DNA of 33,927 nucleotides from Propionibacteriales bacterium (lineage in GTDB: Bacteria; Actinomycetota; Actinomycetes; Propionibacteriales; Propionibacteriaceae), in assembly GCA_038220215.1 (NCBI GenBank), contig JBBRIY010000001.1, positions 1 through 33,927 on the forward strand. The letters run 5' to 3'. Positions 15,751-33,392 of this stretch are shown in pieces. The first letter of the stretch is position 1; each line of letters starts with the position of its first letter. The position numbers and the translations under genes were made by a program. The notes under the pieces were generated by a model. It was not told the DNA's origin and did not search any database. It was given only the letters and a program-made list of their open reading frames with translations.

Positions 15751-16401
15751 TCACGCGAGCTGATTGAGCTCGACGACCACCTTCCGGAACAACTCACCGA
15801 AGCCCGCCAGCACCCCGGCATTGGGATCAGGGACGCCGAACACCGCCGTGCCATGGCGCAGCCGCTGATTGGCCAGCGGGGCGAGGTCGGGGTGCGCCAG
15901 CACCGCTGCGACGGCAGCCCGGTCCCCGCCCAGCACGAGTGCCTCGAGGGTCGAAACGGCCGGCAACAGGATCTCGGCGACATCATCGGCAGCAGCGTCG
16001 AACGACTTCCCGGCCTGGTTGGCGCGGCGTCGGGCGTACCGTTGCTGGGACCATCCGCCGGCCTTGGTTCGGCCCTGCACGTAGTGGTGGCCGTGCCGAC
16101 CGGCGATCAGGCGGGAGCCCTCGAAGATCCCGACGGCATGGGCCTGGCGGCGGGCGATCACCGCGCCGACCCTGCGGTCACGGGTGGACTCCGCTACGAG
16201 CGCCGCCAGCGGGTCGCCGTCGGGCAGCGGGCCCCAGGCCAGCGGGAAGTCTGCCTGCGCACCGTCCGGGGCGTGGAGCGTCAGGCGGTCCGGCGTCAGG
16301 TCGACACCAGGGGCGCCGTGGCGTTTGGCGAAGCCCGCCAGCCACCCGGCGAGACGTTCAGGCGCGACGCTTATGGTGCGCGTCCCCGGCTGCGGTGTCA
16401 T
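15751..16401 (-). CDS. acVLRF1 family (actinobacterial Vms1-like release factor) protein
   Basis: YVQGRTKAGGWSQQRYARRRANQ signature and LVLGGD motif. Confidence 0.88.
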   Translation of the reverse strand: MTPQPGTRTISVAPERLAGWLAGFAKRHGAPGVDLTPDRLTLHAPDGAQADFPLAWGPLPDGDPLAALVAESTRDRRVGAVIARRQAHAVGIFEGSRLIAGRHGHHYVQGRTKAGGWSQQRYARRRANQAGKSFDAAADDVAEILLPAVSTLEALVLGGDRAAVAAVLAHPDLAPLANQRLRHGTAVFGVPDPNAGVLAGFGELFRKVVVELNQLA

Positions 16402-23117: not shown

Positions 23118-23199
23118 TTGGGGACGGTTCCTAACTCGGTCCAACACCCTGAACCGTGGGGACGGTTCTCTCGGTTCCGGTGAACCGAGAGAACCGTCC
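23118..23199. repeat. REP-like repeat cluster 1
   Basis: TTGGGGACGGTTCCTAACTCGGTCC (23118-23142) plus perfect 18-bp hairpin GGACGGTTCTCTCGGTTC-CGGT-GAACCGAGAGAACCGTCC (23160-23199). Confidence 0.75.
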
Positions 23200-23437
23200 T
23201 GTTGTTCACGCGGGGGCAAGCTGGGACGGGTGGTCCCGCCGGTGCCGAACCTGACGAAGCCGGCGGCAGAACCGGAGACGCTGATCCAGCATTGGCTCTT
23301 CGCCGGAAACAGCGTGGACGGCTGCGGGTGGCTGCATGGGAGGTCAATCGATTTAGTCAAAGGGGCTGCCAGTGACGCCGAAGGTTTACTAGGCTGCTGA
23401 ATTCCTGGACAAGGGTGTGAGGACGGAAGGCAACCCC

Positions 23438-26077
23438 ATGGACGTGAGCTTCCCGGAACTGACCGATCCCGAGGCTGTTCCCACGGGCGACATGCCCGGC
23501 GACAAGGTGCAGATCACGCCGGGCCACATTGCCGCGGCGCAGAGCATCTTCCCTGAGCTGTGGCGTCTGCTGGAACCGGTGCTCGCTGCCCGTCCCCAGC
23601 ACCGGGCGGTGGTGTCGGTCCATGGCGGCTCGGGGGTCGGCAAGTCCGAGACCGGCTCCTTGCTGGCCTACGGGCTCAACCGGCTCGGCGTCGGCGCCTA
23701 TGTCCTCTCCGGTGACAACTACCCGCGGCGCATCCCGTCGGCCAATGACGCCGAGCGGTTGCGCACCTTTCGCGTTGGGGGCCTCCAGGGACTGGTGGCC
23801 CGGGACGTCTACGCCGCCCCTGTCCGTGCCGAGCTCGCGGCCCTGCAGTCCGCCGATGCCGATGCCGACCCCCGGCAGGTGGCCGCCCACCCGTGGCTGG
23901 CGACCTACCAGAAGACCGGACGCGCGGCGCTCACCGGCTACCTCGGCACCCCGGCCGAGGTGGACTTCGACGAGATCAACCGCATCCTCGCGGCCTTCCA
24001 CGCCGGGGCCGACTCCCTGCTCCTGAAGCGGATGGGCCGCACCGCGGACGCCCTGTGGTACGACGAGGTGGACCTCTCCGGCACCCCGGTGATCGTCGTG
24101 GAATGGACGCACGGGAACAACGAGCACCTGGTCGGTGTCGACATCCCGATTCTGCTGAACAGCACCCCGGAGGAGACCCTGGCGCACCGCCGCTCGCGCA
24201 GCAGGGACGGGGCAGTGGACAGCCCGTTCACGACGATGGTGCTCGAGCTCGAACAGGCACGACTGCGGTCGCAGGCCTCCCGAGCGGCGATCATCGTGTC
24301 CCGTTCCGGCGAACTGCTCGACTATGACGGCTACCTCACGGCGATGGGGGCCGACCTGCCGGCGGCCGGCACGATGCTGAACGTCTACCCCGACAGCATC
24401 GGCGGCACTCTCGCCGACCTGGTCGCGTTTCTCCGGCGTCCCGAACTGAAGGACGTGTTCAGCTCGGCCTACCTGCTGCCGAGCGTCTTCAACACCGACT
24501 TGGACCGCGGCTTCTCCGTGATCGATTACTCGCTGAGCGAGAAGTTCGCGACCCGCGACGACATCGCTGCTCTGGCGGAGGAGGGCATCGACTTCACGTT
24601 CGACTTCATTCTTAACCACGCCTCGGTGCTGTCACCGCAGTTCCAGGACATCATCGCCAACGGTGAGCGATCGCCCTACGTCGACTTCTTCGTCGACTGG
24701 AACGCGTTCTGGGCCGGCAACGGCGAACTCACCGACGGCGGCTACGTCGAGCCGCGTCCAGAGCTGATCAAGGACATGTTCTTCCGCAAGCCCGGCCTGC
24801 CGATCCTGATGGTGCGGCTGCCGGACGGCAGCGAGAAGCCGTACTGGAACACCTTCTACCAGGAGGTGCGCTATACCGTCCCGGACACCCAGGACGTGAT
24901 GGACGCGACCGGGCTGCAGTACGGCACGGCCGAGGTGCTGGCCGGCCGGCTCGCGTCCGTCCTCGCGGTCGGCGGACGCCCGGCCGAAGCCGACTTCACG
25001 GGGTTCGAGGCCGCGCGTGAGAGCGTGGTCGACCTCGTCGAATCCCGCCGGCGCTACCTGGGCCAGATGGACCTCAACATCAAGAGCCCCCTGGTCTGGG
25101 ACTTCTATGCCGACACCCTCGACAAGCTCGCCGGCTACGGCGCGCAGATCGTCCGGCTGGACGCTTTCGCCTATGCGCCCAAGGAGCCAGGACTGAAGAA
25201 CTTCCTGAACGATCCGGGCACCTGGGACCTGTTGGCCCGGGTCAAGGGGCTGGCCGACCGCCGAGGGCTGAAGCTGCTGCCGGAGATCCACTCCACCTAC
25301 GCCGAGGGCATCCACGCCACGATCGCAGCCAAGGGCTTCCTGACCTACGACTTTTTCCTTCCCGGGCTGGTGATCGACGCCTTCGAGAACGCGGACGCGT
25401 CCCTGCTCAAGCGGTGGATCGGCGAACTGCTCGGCCAGCGGATCCGGACGGTGAACATGCTCGGCTGCCACGATGGCATCCCCGTGCTCGACCTGAAGGG
25501 CCTGCTGCCGGAGGAGCGCATCCAGGCGCTGATCGCCACCATCACCGGCCGCGGTGGCTACGTGAAGGACCTGCACGGTGCGAAGAACATCTACTACCAG
25601 GTGAACGCGACCTACTTCAGCGCGCTGGGGGAGAGTGAGGCGCGGCTGCTGCTGGCCCGGGCCATCCAGCTGTTCATGCCCGGCAAGCCGCAGGTCTGGT
25701 ACCTGGACCTGTTCGCCGGCGGTAACGACCACGCCGCGGTCGAACGAGCAGGCGAGGGCGGCCACAAGGAGATCAACCGGACGAACCTGTCCGCCGAAGC
25801 GATCACTGCCGGACTGGATCAGCCTGTGGTCACCCGCCAGCTGGAGCTGCTGCGGTTCCGCAACACCTTCGGTGCGTTCGGCTTCGACGCCACCTGCGAG
25901 GTCGCGGAAACCAGCCCCCGGACGCTACGGATCACCTGGCGCAAGGGCGGCCGCGCTGCCACCCTGGACGCCGACCTCGCAGCGGAAACCTTCACCATCA
26001 CCGCCACCAGCGAGGACGGCACGACGCGGACGGTCCTGGCGCAAACCGGGGACGGTTCTCAGTTCCCGCCAAGTTGA
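23438..26077 (+). CDS. Fusion: N-terminal P-loop kinase plus C-terminal GH13_18 sucrose(-phosphate) phosphorylase-like domain
   Basis: Walker A HGGSGVGKSE and LSGDNY in the first ~300 aa; from ~24370 LNVYPDSIG, DLDRGFS, DFILNH, VRLDAFAY (nucleophile), LPEIH (acid/base), GCHDGIP, YYQVN, MPGKPQVWY; alternative start GTG 23417. Confidence 0.9.
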   Translation: MDVSFPELTDPEAVPTGDMPGDKVQITPGHIAAAQSIFPELWRLLEPVLAARPQHRAVVSVHGGSGVGKSETGSLLAYGLNRLGVGAYVLSGDNYPRRIPSANDAERLRTFRVGGLQGLVARDVYAAPVRAELAALQSADADADPRQVAAHPWLATYQKTGRAALTGYLGTPAEVDFDEINRILAAFHAGADSLLLKRMGRTADALWYDEVDLSGTPVIVVEWTHGNNEHLVGVDIPILLNSTPEETLAHRRSRSRDGAVDSPFTTMVLELEQARLRSQASRAAIIVSRSGELLDYDGYLTAMGADLPAAGTMLNVYPDSIGGTLADLVAFLRRPELKDVFSSAYLLPSVFNTDLDRGFSVIDYSLSEKFATRDDIAALAEEGIDFTFDFILNHASVLSPQFQDIIANGERSPYVDFFVDWNAFWAGNGELTDGGYVEPRPELIKDMFFRKPGLPILMVRLPDGSEKPYWNTFYQEVRYTVPDTQDVMDATGLQYGTAEVLAGRLASVLAVGGRPAEADFTGFEAARESVVDLVESRRRYLGQMDLNIKSPLVWDFYADTLDKLAGYGAQIVRLDAFAYAPKEPGLKNFLNDPGTWDLLARVKGLADRRGLKLLPEIHSTYAEGIHATIAAKGFLTYDFFLPGLVIDAFENADASLLKRWIGELLGQRIRTVNMLGCHDGIPVLDLKGLLPEERIQALIATITGRGGYVKDLHGAKNIYYQVNATYFSALGESEARLLLARAIQLFMPGKPQVWYLDLFAGGNDHAAVERAGEGGHKEINRTNLSAEAITAGLDQPVVTRQLELLRFRNTFGAFGFDATCEVAETSPRTLRITWRKGGRAATLDADLAAETFTITATSEDGTTRTVLAQTGDGSQFPPS

Positions 26078-26111
26078 CGATTCAACCTGAACCGAACCAG
26101 GAACCGTCCCC
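26048..26111. repeat. REP-like inverted pair, cluster 2
   Basis: GGGGACGGTTC (26048-26058) and its exact inverse GAACCGTCCCC (26101-26111) straddle the stop codon between convergent genes. Confidence 0.7.
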
Positions 26112-26135
26112 AGGTTCGGATCATCCGGGCTCAGG

Positions 26136-27397: not shown

Positions 27398-27491
27398 GGA
27401 CCGAATTTGGAACCGTCCCCAACTTGGTCCGCTCGGCCGGGGTGGCGGGACGGTTTGTGCGCGTGCGGACCGAGTGAGGAACCGTCCCCAA
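27398..27491. repeat. REP-like repeat cluster 3
   Basis: GGACCGAATTTGGAACCGTCCCCAA (27398-27422) and GGACCGAGTGAGGAACCGTCCCCAA (27467-27491) are inverse copies (2 and 1 mismatches) of 23118-23142; partial GGGACGGTT at 27447-27455. Confidence 0.75.
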
Positions 27492-27847: not shown

Positions 27848-30430
27848 GTGGGGCAGGGTTGGCTGGATCTGGCTGAGGCCAAGTGGACCGTCCGTGCGGA
27901 TGCGTCCGGCCATGGCTGGGCTGGGGTGCCCGAAGCCCTGCGTGACCAACTCGCCGCCGGTATCCCGGCCACCGTGCCCGGTGTGGTGCACACCGATCTT
28001 CTGGCAGAGGGCCTCATCGACGACCCGTACCTGGGCACTGCAGAGGCGGACCAGCACTGGGTGGGCCAGCAGGCCTGGACCTACCGTGCTGAATTCGACC
28101 TCGCGTCCTACGCGGAGGAACTGAAGTCCGCCAACTGCGAACTGCTCTGCGATGGACTCGACACCATCGCAGAGGTGTTCTGCAACGGCACGCACGTCGG
28201 TGGCTCGGTCAACATGCACCGCCGCAACGTCTTCTCCGTCGGGAACCTGCTCCGGGCCGGGACGAACGTCATCGAGGTCACCTTCGCCCCAGTGCTGGAG
28301 TACACCGCGCAGATGGCGGCGCTGGTCGGCGAGCGGATCCACGTCGAGCGTGACCCGTACAACCTCGTCCGCAAGATGGCCTGCAACTTCGGCTGGGACT
28401 GGGGGCCACGCCTCATCACGGCCGGCATCTGGAAGACGATCGGCCTGCGCAGCTGGGAGACCGCCCGCATCACCGACCTCGCCGTCTTCGCCACAGCCAC
28501 CCCGAACGGCTCGGGCGGCTGGAACGGCGAGCTGCGCGTGCACGTCCAGGTCTCCGGTGCCACCCGCTTCGCAGCCCTCACCGTGCGAGTGCACGGAACG
28601 GGCGCGACCTCCGCCGACGCAGAGGCGGGAGCGTCGGCAGAGGACTGGACGGAAATCGTCATCCCGATCAGCGACATCGAGCCCTGGTGGCCGCACAGCA
28701 TCGGCGACCAGCCGCTGTACACCGTCGACGTGATGCTGCACAACGACGTCGCCGTCCTCGACGAGGTGCAGCGCGAGACCGGCTTCCGCAGCATCGAGCT
28801 CGACACCACCCCGGACGCCGACGGTGACGGTGCGACCTTCGGCCTGCGGATCAACGGTGAACTGGTGTTCGTCCGCGGCATGGACTGGATTCCCGACGAC
28901 TGCTTCCCGAGCCGGATCACTCCCGAGCGCTACCGCGAGCGGGTGCAGCAGGCCAAGGACGCCAACGTCGACCTGCTGCGCATCTGGGGCGGCGGCATCT
29001 ACGAGCAGGCGGCCTTCTACAAGGCGTGCGACGAGCTGGGCGTCATGGTGTGGCAGGACTTCTGCCTCGCCTGCGCCGCCTACCCCGAGGAGGAGCCGTT
29101 CCGCTTCGAGGTGGAGGCGGAGGCCCGCGACAACGTGATCCGGTTGTCCGCACACCCCTCGCTGGTCGTCTGGAACGGCAACAACGAGTGCATCTGGGGC
29201 TTCCACGACTGGAACTGGGCCGACAAGCTCGAGGGTCGCACCTGGGGTTCGGGTTACTACTACGACCTCCTCCCGCAGGTCGTCGCAGAGCTCGACCCGT
29301 CCCGTCCGTACTGGCCCGGCAGCCCGTCCTCGGGCCCGGAAGAGGTGGCCAAGGGCCTGCACCCCAACGACCCGAACTACGGCTGCGTGCACATCTGGGA
29401 TGTCTGGAACGATCGCGACTACACCGGTTACGACGCCTACTCCCCGCGGTTCGTCAGCGAGTTCGGTTACCAGGGGCCGGCGACCTGGGCCACCTGGGCA
29501 CGCACGCTCGAGCCGCAGGACCGCAGCGCCACCTCAGCAGCCATGCTGGCGCACCAGAAGGCCGCCGGCGGCAACACCAAGCTCAACAGCGGCATCGTCG
29601 GCCACCTGCCCGCCCCCGGCGAGGGCATTGACGACTTCGACGAGTGGCTGTTCGCGATGCAGCTGCAGCAGGCCCGGGCCGTCCGCTACGGCATCGACCG
29701 CTGGCGATCGCTGCGGGGACGTTGTCTCGGCTCGATCGTGTGGCAGCTCAACGACTGCTGGCCCGTGACGTCCTGGGCGGCCCTCGACCTCGGCACCAAT
29801 GCCGCCGGCGGGACCGTGGCCCGCCGCAAGCCGCTGTGGTACGCGGTGCGCTCGGCGTACGCCGACCGCGTGGCGCTCCTGTCGCCGGAGGGCGGCCAGT
29901 GGCGGCTGTCGCTGGTCAACGACAGCGTGGCCGAGTGGAACGCCGCCGGTCAGGTGGAGCTGCGCCGCCTCTCGGGAGAAGTGCTCTGGTCGACACCGGT
30001 GGACGCCGTCGTGCCGGTCCGGGACCGGCTGGACGTGGCCGTCTCCGTCCCGGTTCCCGAGGCAGCAACCGATGACCTGGCCATCGTCGTCACCGTCCGC
30101 GGCGCCGAACGGCTCGTCAGGCTCCTTGTCGAGGACGTCGAAGCGTCCATCCCCGTGCCAGCCCTCGAAGGGACGGTCACCGCGACACCGGCCGGCGCTG
30201 CCGTGACGGTGGTGGCCGGCAGTTTCCTGCGGACCCTGTGCCTGTTCGCCGACCGGGTCTGCGAGGACGCGACGACCGACACCATGATGGTCGACCTGTT
30301 CCCGGGCGAATCCCACACCTTCGACGTCGCAGGAGACCTCGAGGGCATCGAGTTGTCGCAGCTCACGGGCCCGACAGTGCTGCGCTCCCTGACCGTGCCG
30401 CTCGCCCTTGGAGCCGCCCGGGAGAGATGA
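27848..30430 (+). CDS. GH2 beta-mannosidase-like glycoside hydrolase
   Basis: RK..CNFGWDWGP, LRIWGGGIYE, WQDF, WNGNNE (acid/base), RFVSEFG (nucleophile), WQLNDCWP; AGGAGG SD; no signal peptide. Confidence 0.93.
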   Translation: MGQGWLDLAEAKWTVRADASGHGWAGVPEALRDQLAAGIPATVPGVVHTDLLAEGLIDDPYLGTAEADQHWVGQQAWTYRAEFDLASYAEELKSANCELLCDGLDTIAEVFCNGTHVGGSVNMHRRNVFSVGNLLRAGTNVIEVTFAPVLEYTAQMAALVGERIHVERDPYNLVRKMACNFGWDWGPRLITAGIWKTIGLRSWETARITDLAVFATATPNGSGGWNGELRVHVQVSGATRFAALTVRVHGTGATSADAEAGASAEDWTEIVIPISDIEPWWPHSIGDQPLYTVDVMLHNDVAVLDEVQRETGFRSIELDTTPDADGDGATFGLRINGELVFVRGMDWIPDDCFPSRITPERYRERVQQAKDANVDLLRIWGGGIYEQAAFYKACDELGVMVWQDFCLACAAYPEEEPFRFEVEAEARDNVIRLSAHPSLVVWNGNNECIWGFHDWNWADKLEGRTWGSGYYYDLLPQVVAELDPSRPYWPGSPSSGPEEVAKGLHPNDPNYGCVHIWDVWNDRDYTGYDAYSPRFVSEFGYQGPATWATWARTLEPQDRSATSAAMLAHQKAAGGNTKLNSGIVGHLPAPGEGIDDFDEWLFAMQLQQARAVRYGIDRWRSLRGRCLGSIVWQLNDCWPVTSWAALDLGTNAAGGTVARRKPLWYAVRSAYADRVALLSPEGGQWRLSLVNDSVAEWNAAGQVELRRLSGEVLWSTPVDAVVPVRDRLDVAVSVPVPEAATDDLAIVVTVRGAERLVRLLVEDVEASIPVPALEGTVTATPAGAAVTVVAGSFLRTLCLFADRVCEDATTDTMMVDLFPGESHTFDVAGDLEGIELSQLTGPTVLRSLTVPLALGAARER

Positions 30431-30540
30431 GCGCGCAGGCCCGGTCCTCGCGCCGGGCACCAACAAGGAATCGTTAGTCAACGAAGACTCAACAAAAACC
30501 ATCGGACCCCGGAGCGGGGCCAGTCAACAGGAGGAAGTCA

Positions 30541-32352
30541 ATGTCAGATTCCGTCTTCGAGCAGCCGTCGCGCCGCTCGTTCATCAAGATCGGTGGCCTT
30601 GCGATCGGCGGCCTCGCCCTCGCGGCGTGTGCACCGGCTGCCAACACCGGCGCATCCGGCGGCGCCACCGGCGGCACCGAGGCCAAGCTCGGCGTCGGCA
30701 ACAATGGCCAGGTCGGCAAGGGCCGCGCCGGAGCCACCGCCGACAGCCTGCTGATCGCCGGCTTCCAGTGGGGGCCGCCGGCCACGTTCAACCCGCTCTC
30801 CCCGACAGCTGCCTGGCCGGCATCTGGCAACGTCATGCAGATCGTGTTCGAAAGCCTGCTCCGCTGGAACATCGCCACCGGTGAGGTCATGCCGGGCCTG
30901 GCCAAGGAGTACAAGCTCGACGGCACCAAGACCATCACCCTCACCATGCAGGACGGCGTGACCTTCTCTGACGGCAGCCCCTGCACCGCCAAGGACGTCG
31001 TTGCAACCTTCGAGCTCGGCAAGAAGAACCCCGGCATCTCGACTGCGTCCTTCTGGGCCGCCGCCGACGCCATCGCGGCGCCCGACGACAAGACCGTCGT
31101 CGTCACGGTCAGCGCCACGACCAAGAACGTGGGTCAGGTGCTGCGGATGCTCACCGAGACCTACATCCTGCCGACAGCCGTGTTCTCGAAGATCGCAGAC
31201 GACAAGCTGCCCACCGAGATCATGGACAAGCCGATCGGCACCGGTCCGTTCACGCTGAGCAAGGCCGACCAGACTCAGGTCGTGCTGGCGCTTAACGAGA
31301 ACTACTGGGGCAAGACGTTCTACGGCGGCCTGCCGGTGATGAAGCAGATCATCCACCCGATCTTCAAGTCCAACGAGGATGGCAACATCAAGTTCCAGGC
31401 CGGCGAACTGGACATCATGCAGCAGTTCGTCTCCCAGATCTGGAAGATGTGGGAGGGTGGCAAGCCGGTCGGCACCTACCTCAAGGACAAGCCGTACTTC
31501 GTCCCGGGCAGCATGCCGATGCTGTTGATGAACACCACCAAGAAGGGCCTCGACAACCCGGCCGTGCGCAAGGCCATCGCTTCGGCGATCGACTACGCGT
31601 CGATCGCAGAGACGGCCATGTCGGGTTACTCCGCCGAGGTGCAGGCGAGCCTCATCCTGCCGACCGGTGCAGAAGGCAAGTTCTTCAACGCCGACGACGC
31701 CAAGGCCAATGGCTGGAAGTACGACGCGGCCGCAGCGGAGAAGCTGCTCACCGACGCCGGAGCCAAGAAGGGCGGCGACGGTGTCTACACCATCGACGGC
31801 ACCCGCCTCGGCCCGTGGAAGCTGATCACCCCGACCGGCTGGACCGACTGGAACGCATCTTGCGAGATCATCGCGAAGAGCCTGAAGGCGATCGGCATCG
31901 ACTGCTCGACCAACTTCCCGCAGCAGGCTGAGACCACCCAGGCCATCCAGGGTGGAACCTTCGACCTGGCCGTCTGGTACGTGTCCGGTGTGAACCCGGC
32001 CACCCCGTGGGCCCGGTTCAAGGACATCATGAGCCAGTCCGAGGTGCAGCCGATCGGCAAGACGACCTTCGCCAACTACGGCCGGTGGAAGAACGCGGAC
32101 GTCGAGGCACTCCTCACCGAGGCCTCGCAGGCGACCGACGATGCCGGCAAGAAGGCTGCCTACGACAAGCTGGATGCGCTGTACCGCATGGAAGTTCCCG
32201 CCTGCCCGATCATGTACCGGCCGGACGAGTTCTACGAGTACAACGCCACCAACTTCTTCAACTGGCCCGACGAGAAGAACAGCTACGCCCCGCCGATGTT
32301 CCGCGGCGCCGGCAACACGTGGATGTACAAGATCAAGAAGATCGCCGGCTGA
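30541..32352 (+). CDS. ABC substrate-binding lipoprotein, family 5, Tat-exported; probably oligosaccharide-binding
   Basis: SRRSFIK twin-arginine motif, LAAC lipobox, GVTFSDG.P.TA.DV, PIGTGPF, PTGWTDW. Confidence 0.92.
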   Translation: MSDSVFEQPSRRSFIKIGGLAIGGLALAACAPAANTGASGGATGGTEAKLGVGNNGQVGKGRAGATADSLLIAGFQWGPPATFNPLSPTAAWPASGNVMQIVFESLLRWNIATGEVMPGLAKEYKLDGTKTITLTMQDGVTFSDGSPCTAKDVVATFELGKKNPGISTASFWAAADAIAAPDDKTVVVTVSATTKNVGQVLRMLTETYILPTAVFSKIADDKLPTEIMDKPIGTGPFTLSKADQTQVVLALNENYWGKTFYGGLPVMKQIIHPIFKSNEDGNIKFQAGELDIMQQFVSQIWKMWEGGKPVGTYLKDKPYFVPGSMPMLLMNTTKKGLDNPAVRKAIASAIDYASIAETAMSGYSAEVQASLILPTGAEGKFFNADDAKANGWKYDAAAAEKLLTDAGAKKGGDGVYTIDGTRLGPWKLITPTGWTDWNASCEIIAKSLKAIGIDCSTNFPQQAETTQAIQGGTFDLAVWYVSGVNPATPWARFKDIMSQSEVQPIGKTTFANYGRWKNADVEALLTEASQATDDAGKKAAYDKLDALYRMEVPACPIMYRPDEFYEYNATNFFNWPDEKNSYAPPMFRGAGNTWMYKIKKIAG

Positions 32353-32384
32353 GTCAGCGTCCGTTCTAGGAAAGTTGGATTGCC

Positions 32385-33392
32385 ATGGGTCTAAGGCGCT
32401 ATCTGGCCAACAAGACCGTCTGGTATCTGGGTGCGCTGGTGGTAGCCGTTGTTCTGAACTTCGTGCTACCCCGGCTCATCCCGGGTAACCCGGTCGACGT
32501 GCTGGTTTCGAAGATGGGCCAGGGAGGCTTGTCCTCCGAGGCCCAGGCTCGAACGTATGAGGCTTTCATGAGGGAGTTCGGCCTTGACAAGCCGCTCTGG
32601 GACCAGTTCGTGTTGTACATCACGGGCGTGTTCGGCGGGAATTTCGGGGCATCGTTCTCGTTCTACCCCACCCCGGTGTCGAGCCTCATCGCCCAATCGG
32701 TGCCTTACACCCTGGCACTCCAACTTCCCGCAATCGTCCTCGGCTGGATCATCGGCAACCTCCTTGGCGCCATCGCCGCCTACAAGGGCGGCGGCTGGGA
32801 CAAGTCGGTGTTCACGACAGCACTGTTGTTCAACTCCACGCCGTATTACTGCTTGTCGATCATCCTGCTCTACGTCTTCGGCGTCGTCCTCGGCTGGTTC
32901 CCGGTGGGTGGGGCCTACTCCCTTGGTAGTTCGCCGGAGTGGAGCTGGACATTCTTCTCTGATGCCCTCACCTATTGGTACTTGCCCTTCGCCTCGCTCG
33001 TGCTCATCAACATCGGCGGCCAGGCCGTCGGCATGCGCTCGATGGCCATCTACGAACTGGGTTCCGATTACGTCAACTACTCCCGGAGCCTGGGCATCGG
33101 TGACCGCAAGATGACTGGCTACATCTTCCGCAACGCCATGCTGCCCCAGATCACCGGTCTTGCCCTGAGCATCGGCACGATGGTGGGCGGAGCGCTAATC
33201 ACGGAGTTGGTGTTCAGCTATCCGGGGATGGGGTCGTTGCTGTTCGGCGCGATCTCCTCCAACGACTACCCGGTGATCCAGGCGGTCACGCTGATCATTA
33301 CGATCGCCGTGCTCGTCGCCAACTATCTGGTCGAGATCCTCTACGGCTTCATCGACCCGCGGATCCGCGCTTCCAAGTCCGGGGAGAAGTGA
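32385..33392 (+). CDS. ABC transporter permease (DppB/OppB type)
   Basis: FVLPRLIPGNP, FGLDKPL, EAA-like loop, ITELVFSYPGMG, NDYPVIQ, DPRI. Confidence 0.95.
   Translation: MGLRRYLANKTVWYLGALVVAVVLNFVLPRLIPGNPVDVLVSKMGQGGLSSEAQARTYEAFMREFGLDKPLWDQFVLYITGVFGGNFGASFSFYPTPVSSLIAQSVPYTLALQLPAIVLGWIIGNLLGAIAAYKGGGWDKSVFTTALLFNSTPYYCLSIILLYVFGVVLGWFPVGGAYSLGSSPEWSWTFFSDALTYWYLPFASLVLINIGGQAVGMRSMAIYELGSDYVNYSRSLGIGDRKMTGYIFRNAMLPQITGLALSIGTMVGGALITELVFSYPGMGSLLFGAISSNDYPVIQAVTLIITIAVLVANYLVEILYGFIDPRIRASKSGEK

Follow-up and report, generated by a model that had tools for sequence, protein, structure and literature searches.

A single-chain AgaSK-family kinase and strict sucrose-6F-phosphate phosphorylase: a probable ATP-dependent route for sucrose breakdown

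Introduction

Strict sucrose-6F-phosphate phosphorylases (SPPs), the type represented by IcSPP of Ilumatobacter coccineus and RgSPP of Ruminococcus gnavus, accepted only sucrose-6F-phosphate or fructose-6-phosphate among the substrates tried (PMC6720575, PMC6521584). The residues of IcSPP that serve catalysis and fructose-6-phosphate binding have been identified (PMC6720575), a KxxYYQ loop A is the signature of strict SPPs (PMC7178133), and SPPs are reversible in vitro (PMC6521584). A 2020 review gave the source of their substrate as "currently unknown" and offered phosphorylation by a phosphotransferase system (PTS) or uptake (PMC7178133). RgSPP is encoded in the same locus as AgaSK, the isolated kinase domain of which phosphorylates sucrose (PMC7688924). 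AgaSK is reported to place the phosphate on the glucose C6 (PMC7688924, with reference to Bruel 2011), whereas RgSPP uses the fructose-phosphorylated isomer (PMC6521584). An association of SPPs with a neighboring kinase was already observed by Tauzin 2019, in whose scheme a GH32 hydrolase acts on the kinase product and sucrose-6F-phosphate enters the cell from outside (PMC6521584). Here, we analyzed a stretch of 33,927 nucleotides (the window) from a Propionibacteriales bacterium (GCA_038220215.1, contig JBBRIY010000001.1), in which one gene joins a kinase assigned to the AgaSK family to a phosphorylase of the strict SPP type. The mismatch between the two published isomers can be tested directly in such a fusion.

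Results

The fusion gene on the plus strand was stop-free to position 26074, closed with a TGA and encoded a protein of 879 amino acids (P0001); GGAAGG, a run resembling a ribosome-binding site, lay immediately 5' of its ATG. An earlier note on this DNA, made from the letters alone, had described an uninterrupted frame of about 880 codons with a domain junction near 24350-24373. Every motif that it quoted was found (GDMPGD at residue 17, HGGSGVGKSE at 62, LSGDNYP at 90, RLDA at 573, LPEIH at 614 and CHDG at 677), and the phosphorylase domain began at about M313, in agreement with that junction. A stop or frameshift at the junction, which the note had raised as a possibility, was absent: a contig of sequencing run X1, possibly the source sample, bridged 24284-24655 with 4 substitutions and 0 gaps.

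A search with residues 1-305, in which 7996 candidates were scored, yielded 312 protein matches of 483-1539 amino acids. Among the best 120 of these, 115 were 840-900 amino acids long and retained the key residues of both domains, so that the same two-domain architecture occurs elsewhere. An assembly or read-through artefact was ruled out by these full-length homologues and the gap-free X1 contig, and the kinase-phosphorylase fusion is confirmed as real. Named homologues came from Propionicimonas, Propioniciclava (WP_232547274 of Propioniciclava soli), Tessaracoccus and other Actinomycetota, and were labeled sucrose phosphorylase, glycosidase or hypothetical protein in the databases. The typical homologue had about 866 amino acids, against 879 here, where the final 10 or so codons overlapped a dispersed inverted repeat. 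The kinase half was present in 24 of 36 genomes of the same genus, 20 of them with open frames of at least 820 codons, and was found in none of 24 genomes that represent other families of the order. Two congeners (G024 and G030, loci L026-L030) matched the kinase half in multiple pieces, and this fragmentation suggests frameshifts or sequencing errors. In an AlphaFold2 model of the whole protein both domains folded within a single chain (pLDDT 89.7); the pTM of 0.83 only hints at a fixed domain arrangement. No paper on a kinase-GH13_18 fusion was found in a literature search for which most subscription journals were beyond reach.

The phosphorylase domain matched IcSPP best in the PDB (6S9U, E 1.5e-179; runner-up 5e-81). 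Its AlphaFold2 model superposed on 6S9U with an rmsd of 2.0 and 52% identity, against 26-33% identity for other GH13_18 types, and its highest Foldseek matches were GH13_18 enzymes throughout. The GH13 barrel was present with D575 as nucleophile, E616 as acid-base and D679 as stabilizer, which bears out the GH13_18 domain with intact triad described in the earlier note. IcSPP residues R152, D223, E264, D327, K364, Y377, Q378 and K434 corresponded to R450, D575, E616, D679, K710, Y720, Q721 and K777 of P0001, each invariant in all 115 full-length homologues; K716 was retained in 109 of the 115. A GH13_18 tree of the kind that the note had suggested (FastTree, 100 of 114 rows used) placed the domain with IcSPP on a strict-SPP branch of 92 rows, apart from the other GH13_18 types with support 100. 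On this evidence the C-terminal domain is assigned to the strict sucrose-6F-phosphate phosphorylase clade, a finer placement than the note had given. An ordinary sucrose phosphorylase was rejected, as the N(L/V)D(I/L/V)YQ loop A was absent and the TIGR03852 score of 310.9 bits fell under the cut-off of 334.4 (IcSPP itself scored 317.4). A glucosylglycerate or glucosylglycerol phosphorylase was likewise rejected, since P0001 has LPEIH and KNIYYQ instead of (T/S)ETN with a loop A Glu, or VGAIYQ.

Neither Pfam nor NCBIfam offered a model that recognized the kinase domain. Its model (pLDDT 93.9) had the PanK/uridine kinase/PRK fold, with structural matches at Z 13.8-17.1, led by PanK (17.1), a putative uridine kinase (16.4) and 3C8U (16.0); 3C8U, a putative kinase of a fructose transport system, was the top Foldseek match and third by Z. 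A library search yielded a 933-residue GH36-kinase protein, a relative of which, P0369, was identified as an AgaSK orthologue (residues 1-720 best matched the AgaSK crystal chain 2YFN with 1455 bits; next, 716). The kinases of P0001 and P0369 shared 38% identity across 268 aligned columns (E 2e-55), interrupted by a single 46-residue gap, and the sugar-side motifs were conserved. In a quick tree of 43 rows, AgaSK-type kinases fell between the group of P0001 and the IcSPP-linked kinase, inside the SPP-linked kinases. The resemblance to the AgaSK kinase put forward in the earlier note thus holds, and alignment and tree identify the N-terminal domain as an AgaSK-family P-loop kinase. By analogy with uridine kinases, D93 is predicted to be its catalytic base. 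Stand-alone homologues carry the database label adenylylsulfate kinase; this identity was rejected for P0001, which had no PF01583 match, and the homologues hit just the first 40 or so profile positions, mostly under the cut-off. A whole-enzyme AgaSK was also rejected, as P0001 had no GH36 match and the single GH36 match of the source genome (G000, 85% complete) lay on contig C268.

Each domain carries an insertion (Table 1). The two mostly co-occurred, in 93 of 101 locus records (some genomes repeated), and were found together in 116 of 120 homologues, the remaining 4 not being measurable. Because both mixed states exist, no claim is made that the insertions co-evolved as a docking pair.

The kinase and strict SPPs travel together in genomes. 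A GTDB scan gave at least 599 confirmed kinase stretches; among the closest 80, which were read, 45 had the kinase fused to the phosphorylase, 32 had the phosphorylase directly downstream, and 3 had none. Two of these three loci are cut off by a contig edge, and each of the three genomes has a 65-79% match on a different contig. Among 401 Clostridia genomes drawn evenly, 18 had a GH13_18 match, at 57-64% identity in 11 and at 35-41% in the other 7. Scoring for the kinase covered 399 genomes and gave 11 positives, which coincide with the 11 strict-type genomes and always have the kinase adjacent to the phosphorylase; 0 of the 7 genomes with other GH13_18 types had it. One of the 11, G459, was the center of the draw, picked for its kinase. 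In a draw of 401 Actinomycetota, all 8 strict-type genomes besides the source genome carried the kinase (2 fused, 6 adjacent), in G331 on the opposite strand. Another, G342, encodes a phosphorylase identical to 6S9U; upstream lies the gene for a member of the kinase family of 217 amino acids (hhalign probability 99.8), the stop codon of which overlaps the phosphorylase start codon. This overlapping kinase appears to be previously unreported: the accessible text of the IcSPP paper, searched for kinase, operon and genome, did not mention it (PMC6720575). The G342 locus (L190:4635-13719) also holds a sugar ATP-binding cassette (ABC) importer, a LacI regulator and a GH32-like gene.

Alternative sources and sinks of sucrose phosphate were looked for in 37 hand-picked kinase-SPP genomes (11 Clostridia, 8 Actinomycetota, the source genome and 17 of its 24 congeners). 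A sucrose PTS over the cut-off was present in 1 of 37, and 18 had no match at E 1e-20; a ScrB-type GH32 over the cut-off was present in 6, and 15 had no match at E 1e-5. A PTS was rejected as the source in the genome studied here, where none of five EIIC matches passed the sucrose cut-off. Neither a sucrose-phosphate synthase nor a sucrose-phosphate phosphatase was found over the cut-off in this 85% complete genome. The 33 unfused loci held ABC permeases in 17, esterases in 14, LacI regulators in 9 and GH36 in 4 cases, and long-form kinases adjoined GH36 and ABC genes at L073 and L083, as AgaSK does. Unfused Bacillota pairs (L076, L088, L089, L093, L098, L104) clustered with esterases from various families and with a NIF3/DUF34 gene, and in two records (P0126, P0129) an esterase was joined to the kinase; these esterase neighbors and fusions suggest acylated sucrose as an upstream substrate. 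On contig C224 of the source genome (3167-4947, L197), an ABC permease gene precedes a GH32-like gene that shares 42% identity with the GH32-like neighbor of IcSPP; the contig end truncates the locus. These genes are a possible partner of the fusion.

Most Bacillota keep the kinase and phosphorylase as separate genes, and the actinobacterial fusions formed one branch (support 100) nested in these unfused Bacillota pairs. This nesting suggests that the actinobacterial genes were acquired from Bacillota and fused afterwards. Outside this group, fused genes were found in single records only: L080 (Lachnospiraceae), P0200 and P0181. A single clade that contains every fusion was rejected (p-AU 0.013), but a clade of L080 and the actinobacterial fusions without P0200 was not (p-AU 0.36; both with 32 of 114 rows). 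From these single records, the fusion would have arisen at least two times; three separate events, the number of changes needed on the FastTree topology, were not adopted in view of the second test.

The fusion gene is flanked upstream by a leucyl aminopeptidase gene and downstream, on the opposite strand, by a PD40 propeller gene. No promoter or terminator above chance was found at the gene, and contigs of one RNA run covered 7 of its 30 bins, which gives no evidence on expression. Farther off, the window holds a GH2-domain glycosidase gene followed by genes for a family 5 solute-binding protein and permease (27848-33392, plus strand), an unrelated carbohydrate locus; no link of its GH2 and peptide-type ABC genes to the fusion was seen. 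A homologue of the acVLRF1-type release factor lies at 15751-16401 on the minus strand (PF18859, E 1e-37). Copies of the REP-like inverted repeat lie at 23119-23200 and 27410-27490 and over the stop of the fusion gene, so that the gene is flanked by them. The 10-base core of the repeat was counted 228 times in the genome, where about 13 copies would be expected and permuted controls gave 4-16; 66 pairs of copies face each other at distances of no more than 120 bases.

Table 1. Coordinates of the fusion gene, its domains and motifs, and the adjoining repeat
Feature	Position in window	Strand	Basis
Kinase-phosphorylase fusion gene, P0001	23438..26077	+	Reading frame; homologues (~866 aa) share start position
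AgaSK-family P-loop kinase domain (assigned), residues 1-303, PanK/uridine kinase/PRK fold	23438..24346	+	Model, alignment, tree
Walker A HGGSGVGKSE; K69, S70, E71 invariant in 115/115 full-length homologues	23621..23650	+	Alignment
LSGDNYP..IP..ND.ERL, motif common to AgaSK orthologue; D93 invariant	23705..23761	+	Alignment
46-aa helical insertion, missing in AgaSK-type and IcSPP-linked kinases	23771..23908	+	Alignment, model
Interdomain linker, ~9 aa, free of stop or frameshift	24347..24373	+	Reading frame, alignment, run X1 contig
GH13_18 phosphorylase domain, assigned to strict sucrose-6F-phosphate clade; D575, E616, D679; fructose-6-phosphate site R450, K710, K777	24374..26035	+	PDB search, alignment, tree, structure
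~52-aa three-helix insertion in domain B, missing in IcSPP	24872..25027	+	Alignment, model
Loop A KNIYYQ (residues 716-721), published KxxYYQ signature of strict SPPs	25583..25600	+	Alignment
Dispersed inverted repeat (REP-like), overlaps last codons and stop, outside enzyme	26047..26112		Repeat count in source genome

Discussion

We consider it likely that this single chain turns sucrose, ATP and phosphate into glucose-1-phosphate and fructose-6-phosphate by way of sucrose-6F-phosphate. Sucrose would enter the cell unphosphorylated, through ABC import or by release from raffinose, fructo-oligosaccharides or sucrose esters. The kinase domain would transfer the phosphate of ATP to C6 of the fructose half of cytoplasmic sucrose, and the phosphorylase domain would cleave the product with phosphate. 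To the observed family assignments and genomic coupling, this model adds four elements that we infer: the substrate, the position of phosphorylation, the degradative direction and the unphosphorylated entry. Sucrose is proposed as the kinase substrate because the AgaSK kinase acts on it, and the 6F position because the kinase is coupled to enzymes that accept the 6F isomer only. The cost of one ATP per sucrose equals that of sucrose phosphorylase plus fructokinase; the gain would therefore be trapping of the sugar and the absence of free fructose rather than energy.

Several observations weigh against this model. The predicted 6F site would contradict the published phosphorylation site of AgaSK, the one tested relative of the kinase. 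The PTS-independent route put forward in the earlier note is thus in line with the near absence of a sucrose PTS over the cut-off and with the coupling, but conflicts with the published glucose-C6 product. The comparison with AgaSK was made with the orthologue P0369, not with the kinase sequence of RgAgaSK itself, and for kinases with the 46-residue insertion the substrate is predicted by homology. The coupling count covers the closest 80 of at least 599 loci, and the related genomes are not independent, so that no p-value is attached to it. No sugar-transport genes neighbor the fused gene in the window, and 0 of 45 fused loci matched the ABC permease seeds, which came from Bacillota. In 3 of the 6 genomes with a GH32 over the ScrB cut-off (G226, G349 and G283), the GH32 gene immediately precedes the kinase gene, an arrangement that can be read for either isomer, as a 6-glucose product and oligosaccharide trimming fit it equally. 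Channeling between the domains, which the note had entertained, is unsupported.

In 3 of the 11 kinase-bearing actinobacterial genomes (G209, G169 and G238), moreover, only distant kinases with other partners were present, and the kinase family would accordingly have other substrates; a second site in G349 likewise has a distant kinase with another partner. In G238 (L193:7945-11856) and G349 (L194:2800-6773), a distant kinase of 215-226 amino acids has a sugar ABC importer on one side and a beta-phosphoglucomutase-GH65 fusion on the other; the best PDB match of this fusion is 9LB6, a trehalose-6-phosphate enzyme. These loci are candidate modules of a trehalose-type kinase and phosphorylase. 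In G209 (L187:1522-3278) and G169 (L188:1501-3266, L192:5601-7772), a short kinase of the IcSPP-linked type overlaps the start of an uncharacterized protein of about 720 amino acids; neither PDB nor NCBIfam gave a match for this protein, and the Atlas gave a weak pointer to GH13-like clusters.

The published regiochemistry would be accommodated if the kinase made sucrose phosphorylated on C6 of glucose, for a GH32 hydrolase or as a signal, while the phosphorylase used sucrose-6F-phosphate from another source. The upstream GH32 genes of the three genomes above and the weak GH32-like gene upstream in G342 would fit this explanation, as would the distant kinases that precede the GH65 fusion, since glucosyl C6 would be phosphorylated in a trehalose-6-phosphate pathway. 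We nevertheless regard it as unlikely: a ScrB over the cut-off is lacking in 31 and a sucrose PTS in 36 of the 37 genomes, the 85% complete source genome yielded no sucrose-phosphate synthase over the cut-off, and the fusion, the stop/start overlap and the identical genome sets are left unexplained. In addition, the AgaSK product was not among the RgSPP substrates in Table 1 of the accessible text (PMC6521584), and the product of the AgaSK domain was identified by mass spectrometry in the 2020 paper (PMC7688924).

Two further explanations keep the pairing and change the substrate or the direction. The true input might be a modified sucrose, such as an acylated sucrose or a short fructo-oligosaccharide, that is trimmed later, with specificity altered by the 46-residue insertion that AgaSK lacks. 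The esterase genes at 14 of the 33 unfused loci and the two esterase-kinase fusions point that way, but the neighbors vary (GH36 in 4 of 33, esterases, GH32), a variety that suits a common sink downstream of sucrose release; kinases of the long form also stand beside GH36 and ABC genes, like AgaSK, and the sugar-side motifs are conserved with its orthologue. Such an input appears distinctly unlikely. A biosynthetic role, in which the kinase would phosphorylate fructose and the phosphorylase would join fructose-6-phosphate and glucose-1-phosphate into sucrose-6F-phosphate for sucrose synthesis or signaling, could draw on the 3C8U match and on the reversibility of SPPs. This is very unlikely, given that the equilibrium favors phosphorolysis, the closest relative with a tested activity phosphorylates sucrose, no sucrose-phosphate phosphatase was found over the cut-off in the source genome, and sugar importers stand at 17 of 33 unfused loci.

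Extending the proposed sucrose 6F-kinase beyond this locus, we lean, at slightly better than even confidence, towards a broader proposal. The whole strict SPP clade would be fed by a dedicated ATP-dependent sucrose 6F-kinase, and the glucose-C6 product of AgaSK would be wrong or an exception. The kinase would be one branch of a wider, hitherto unrecognized disaccharide-kinase family, each member partnered by a phosphorylase for the corresponding disaccharide phosphate (a GH13_18 enzyme in the case of sucrose, GH65 plus beta-phosphoglucomutase in that of a trehalose-like sugar), which would give bacteria that rely on ABC import a PTS-free route. An ATP-dependent sucrose 6F-kinase activity is not described in the papers found. 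If correct, the proposal would provide an enzyme that makes sucrose-6F-phosphate out of sucrose and ATP, explain the origin of the substrate of strict SPPs, close the sucrose/raffinose pathway of gut Clostridia and environmental Actinomycetota, and correct hundreds of "adenylylsulfate kinase" and "sucrose phosphorylase" labels. The surprise is limited, since the two domains were already known, as was their pairing at a few gut loci, and no ATP is saved.

Comparison with known systems

AgaSK of R. gnavus E1 has a homologous kinase domain with the same motifs (PMC7688924), and in its Rgaga1 locus a strict SPP, RgSPP, follows directly downstream, the same pairing as here (PMC6521584). The AgaSK kinase is C-terminal and fused to an upstream GH36 galactosidase, whereas the kinase of P0001 is N-terminal and fused to the phosphorylase; with 212 amino acids, the AgaSK kinase also lacks the N-terminal GDMPGD arm and the 46-residue insertion. 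PanK type I, uridine-cytidine kinase, phosphoribulokinase and FrcK-like proteins share the fold at 10-17% identity. TtSPP (6S9V) and SphSPP, which are promiscuous SPPs, together with ordinary sucrose phosphorylases, GGoP and GGaP, have the GH13_18 fold and triad in common with P0001, but their loop A types (GFDVHQ, FDTYQ, N(L/V)D(I/L/V)YQ, VGAIYQ and the Glu type) are absent from it. IcSPP (EC 2.4.1.329) shares the fold, triad, KxxYYQ loop A and fructose-6-phosphate-binding residues, and its gene likewise has a family kinase directly upstream. IcSPP is a stand-alone protein of 523 amino acids without the domain B insertion, whereas P0001 carries the insertion and unites kinase and phosphorylase in one chain.

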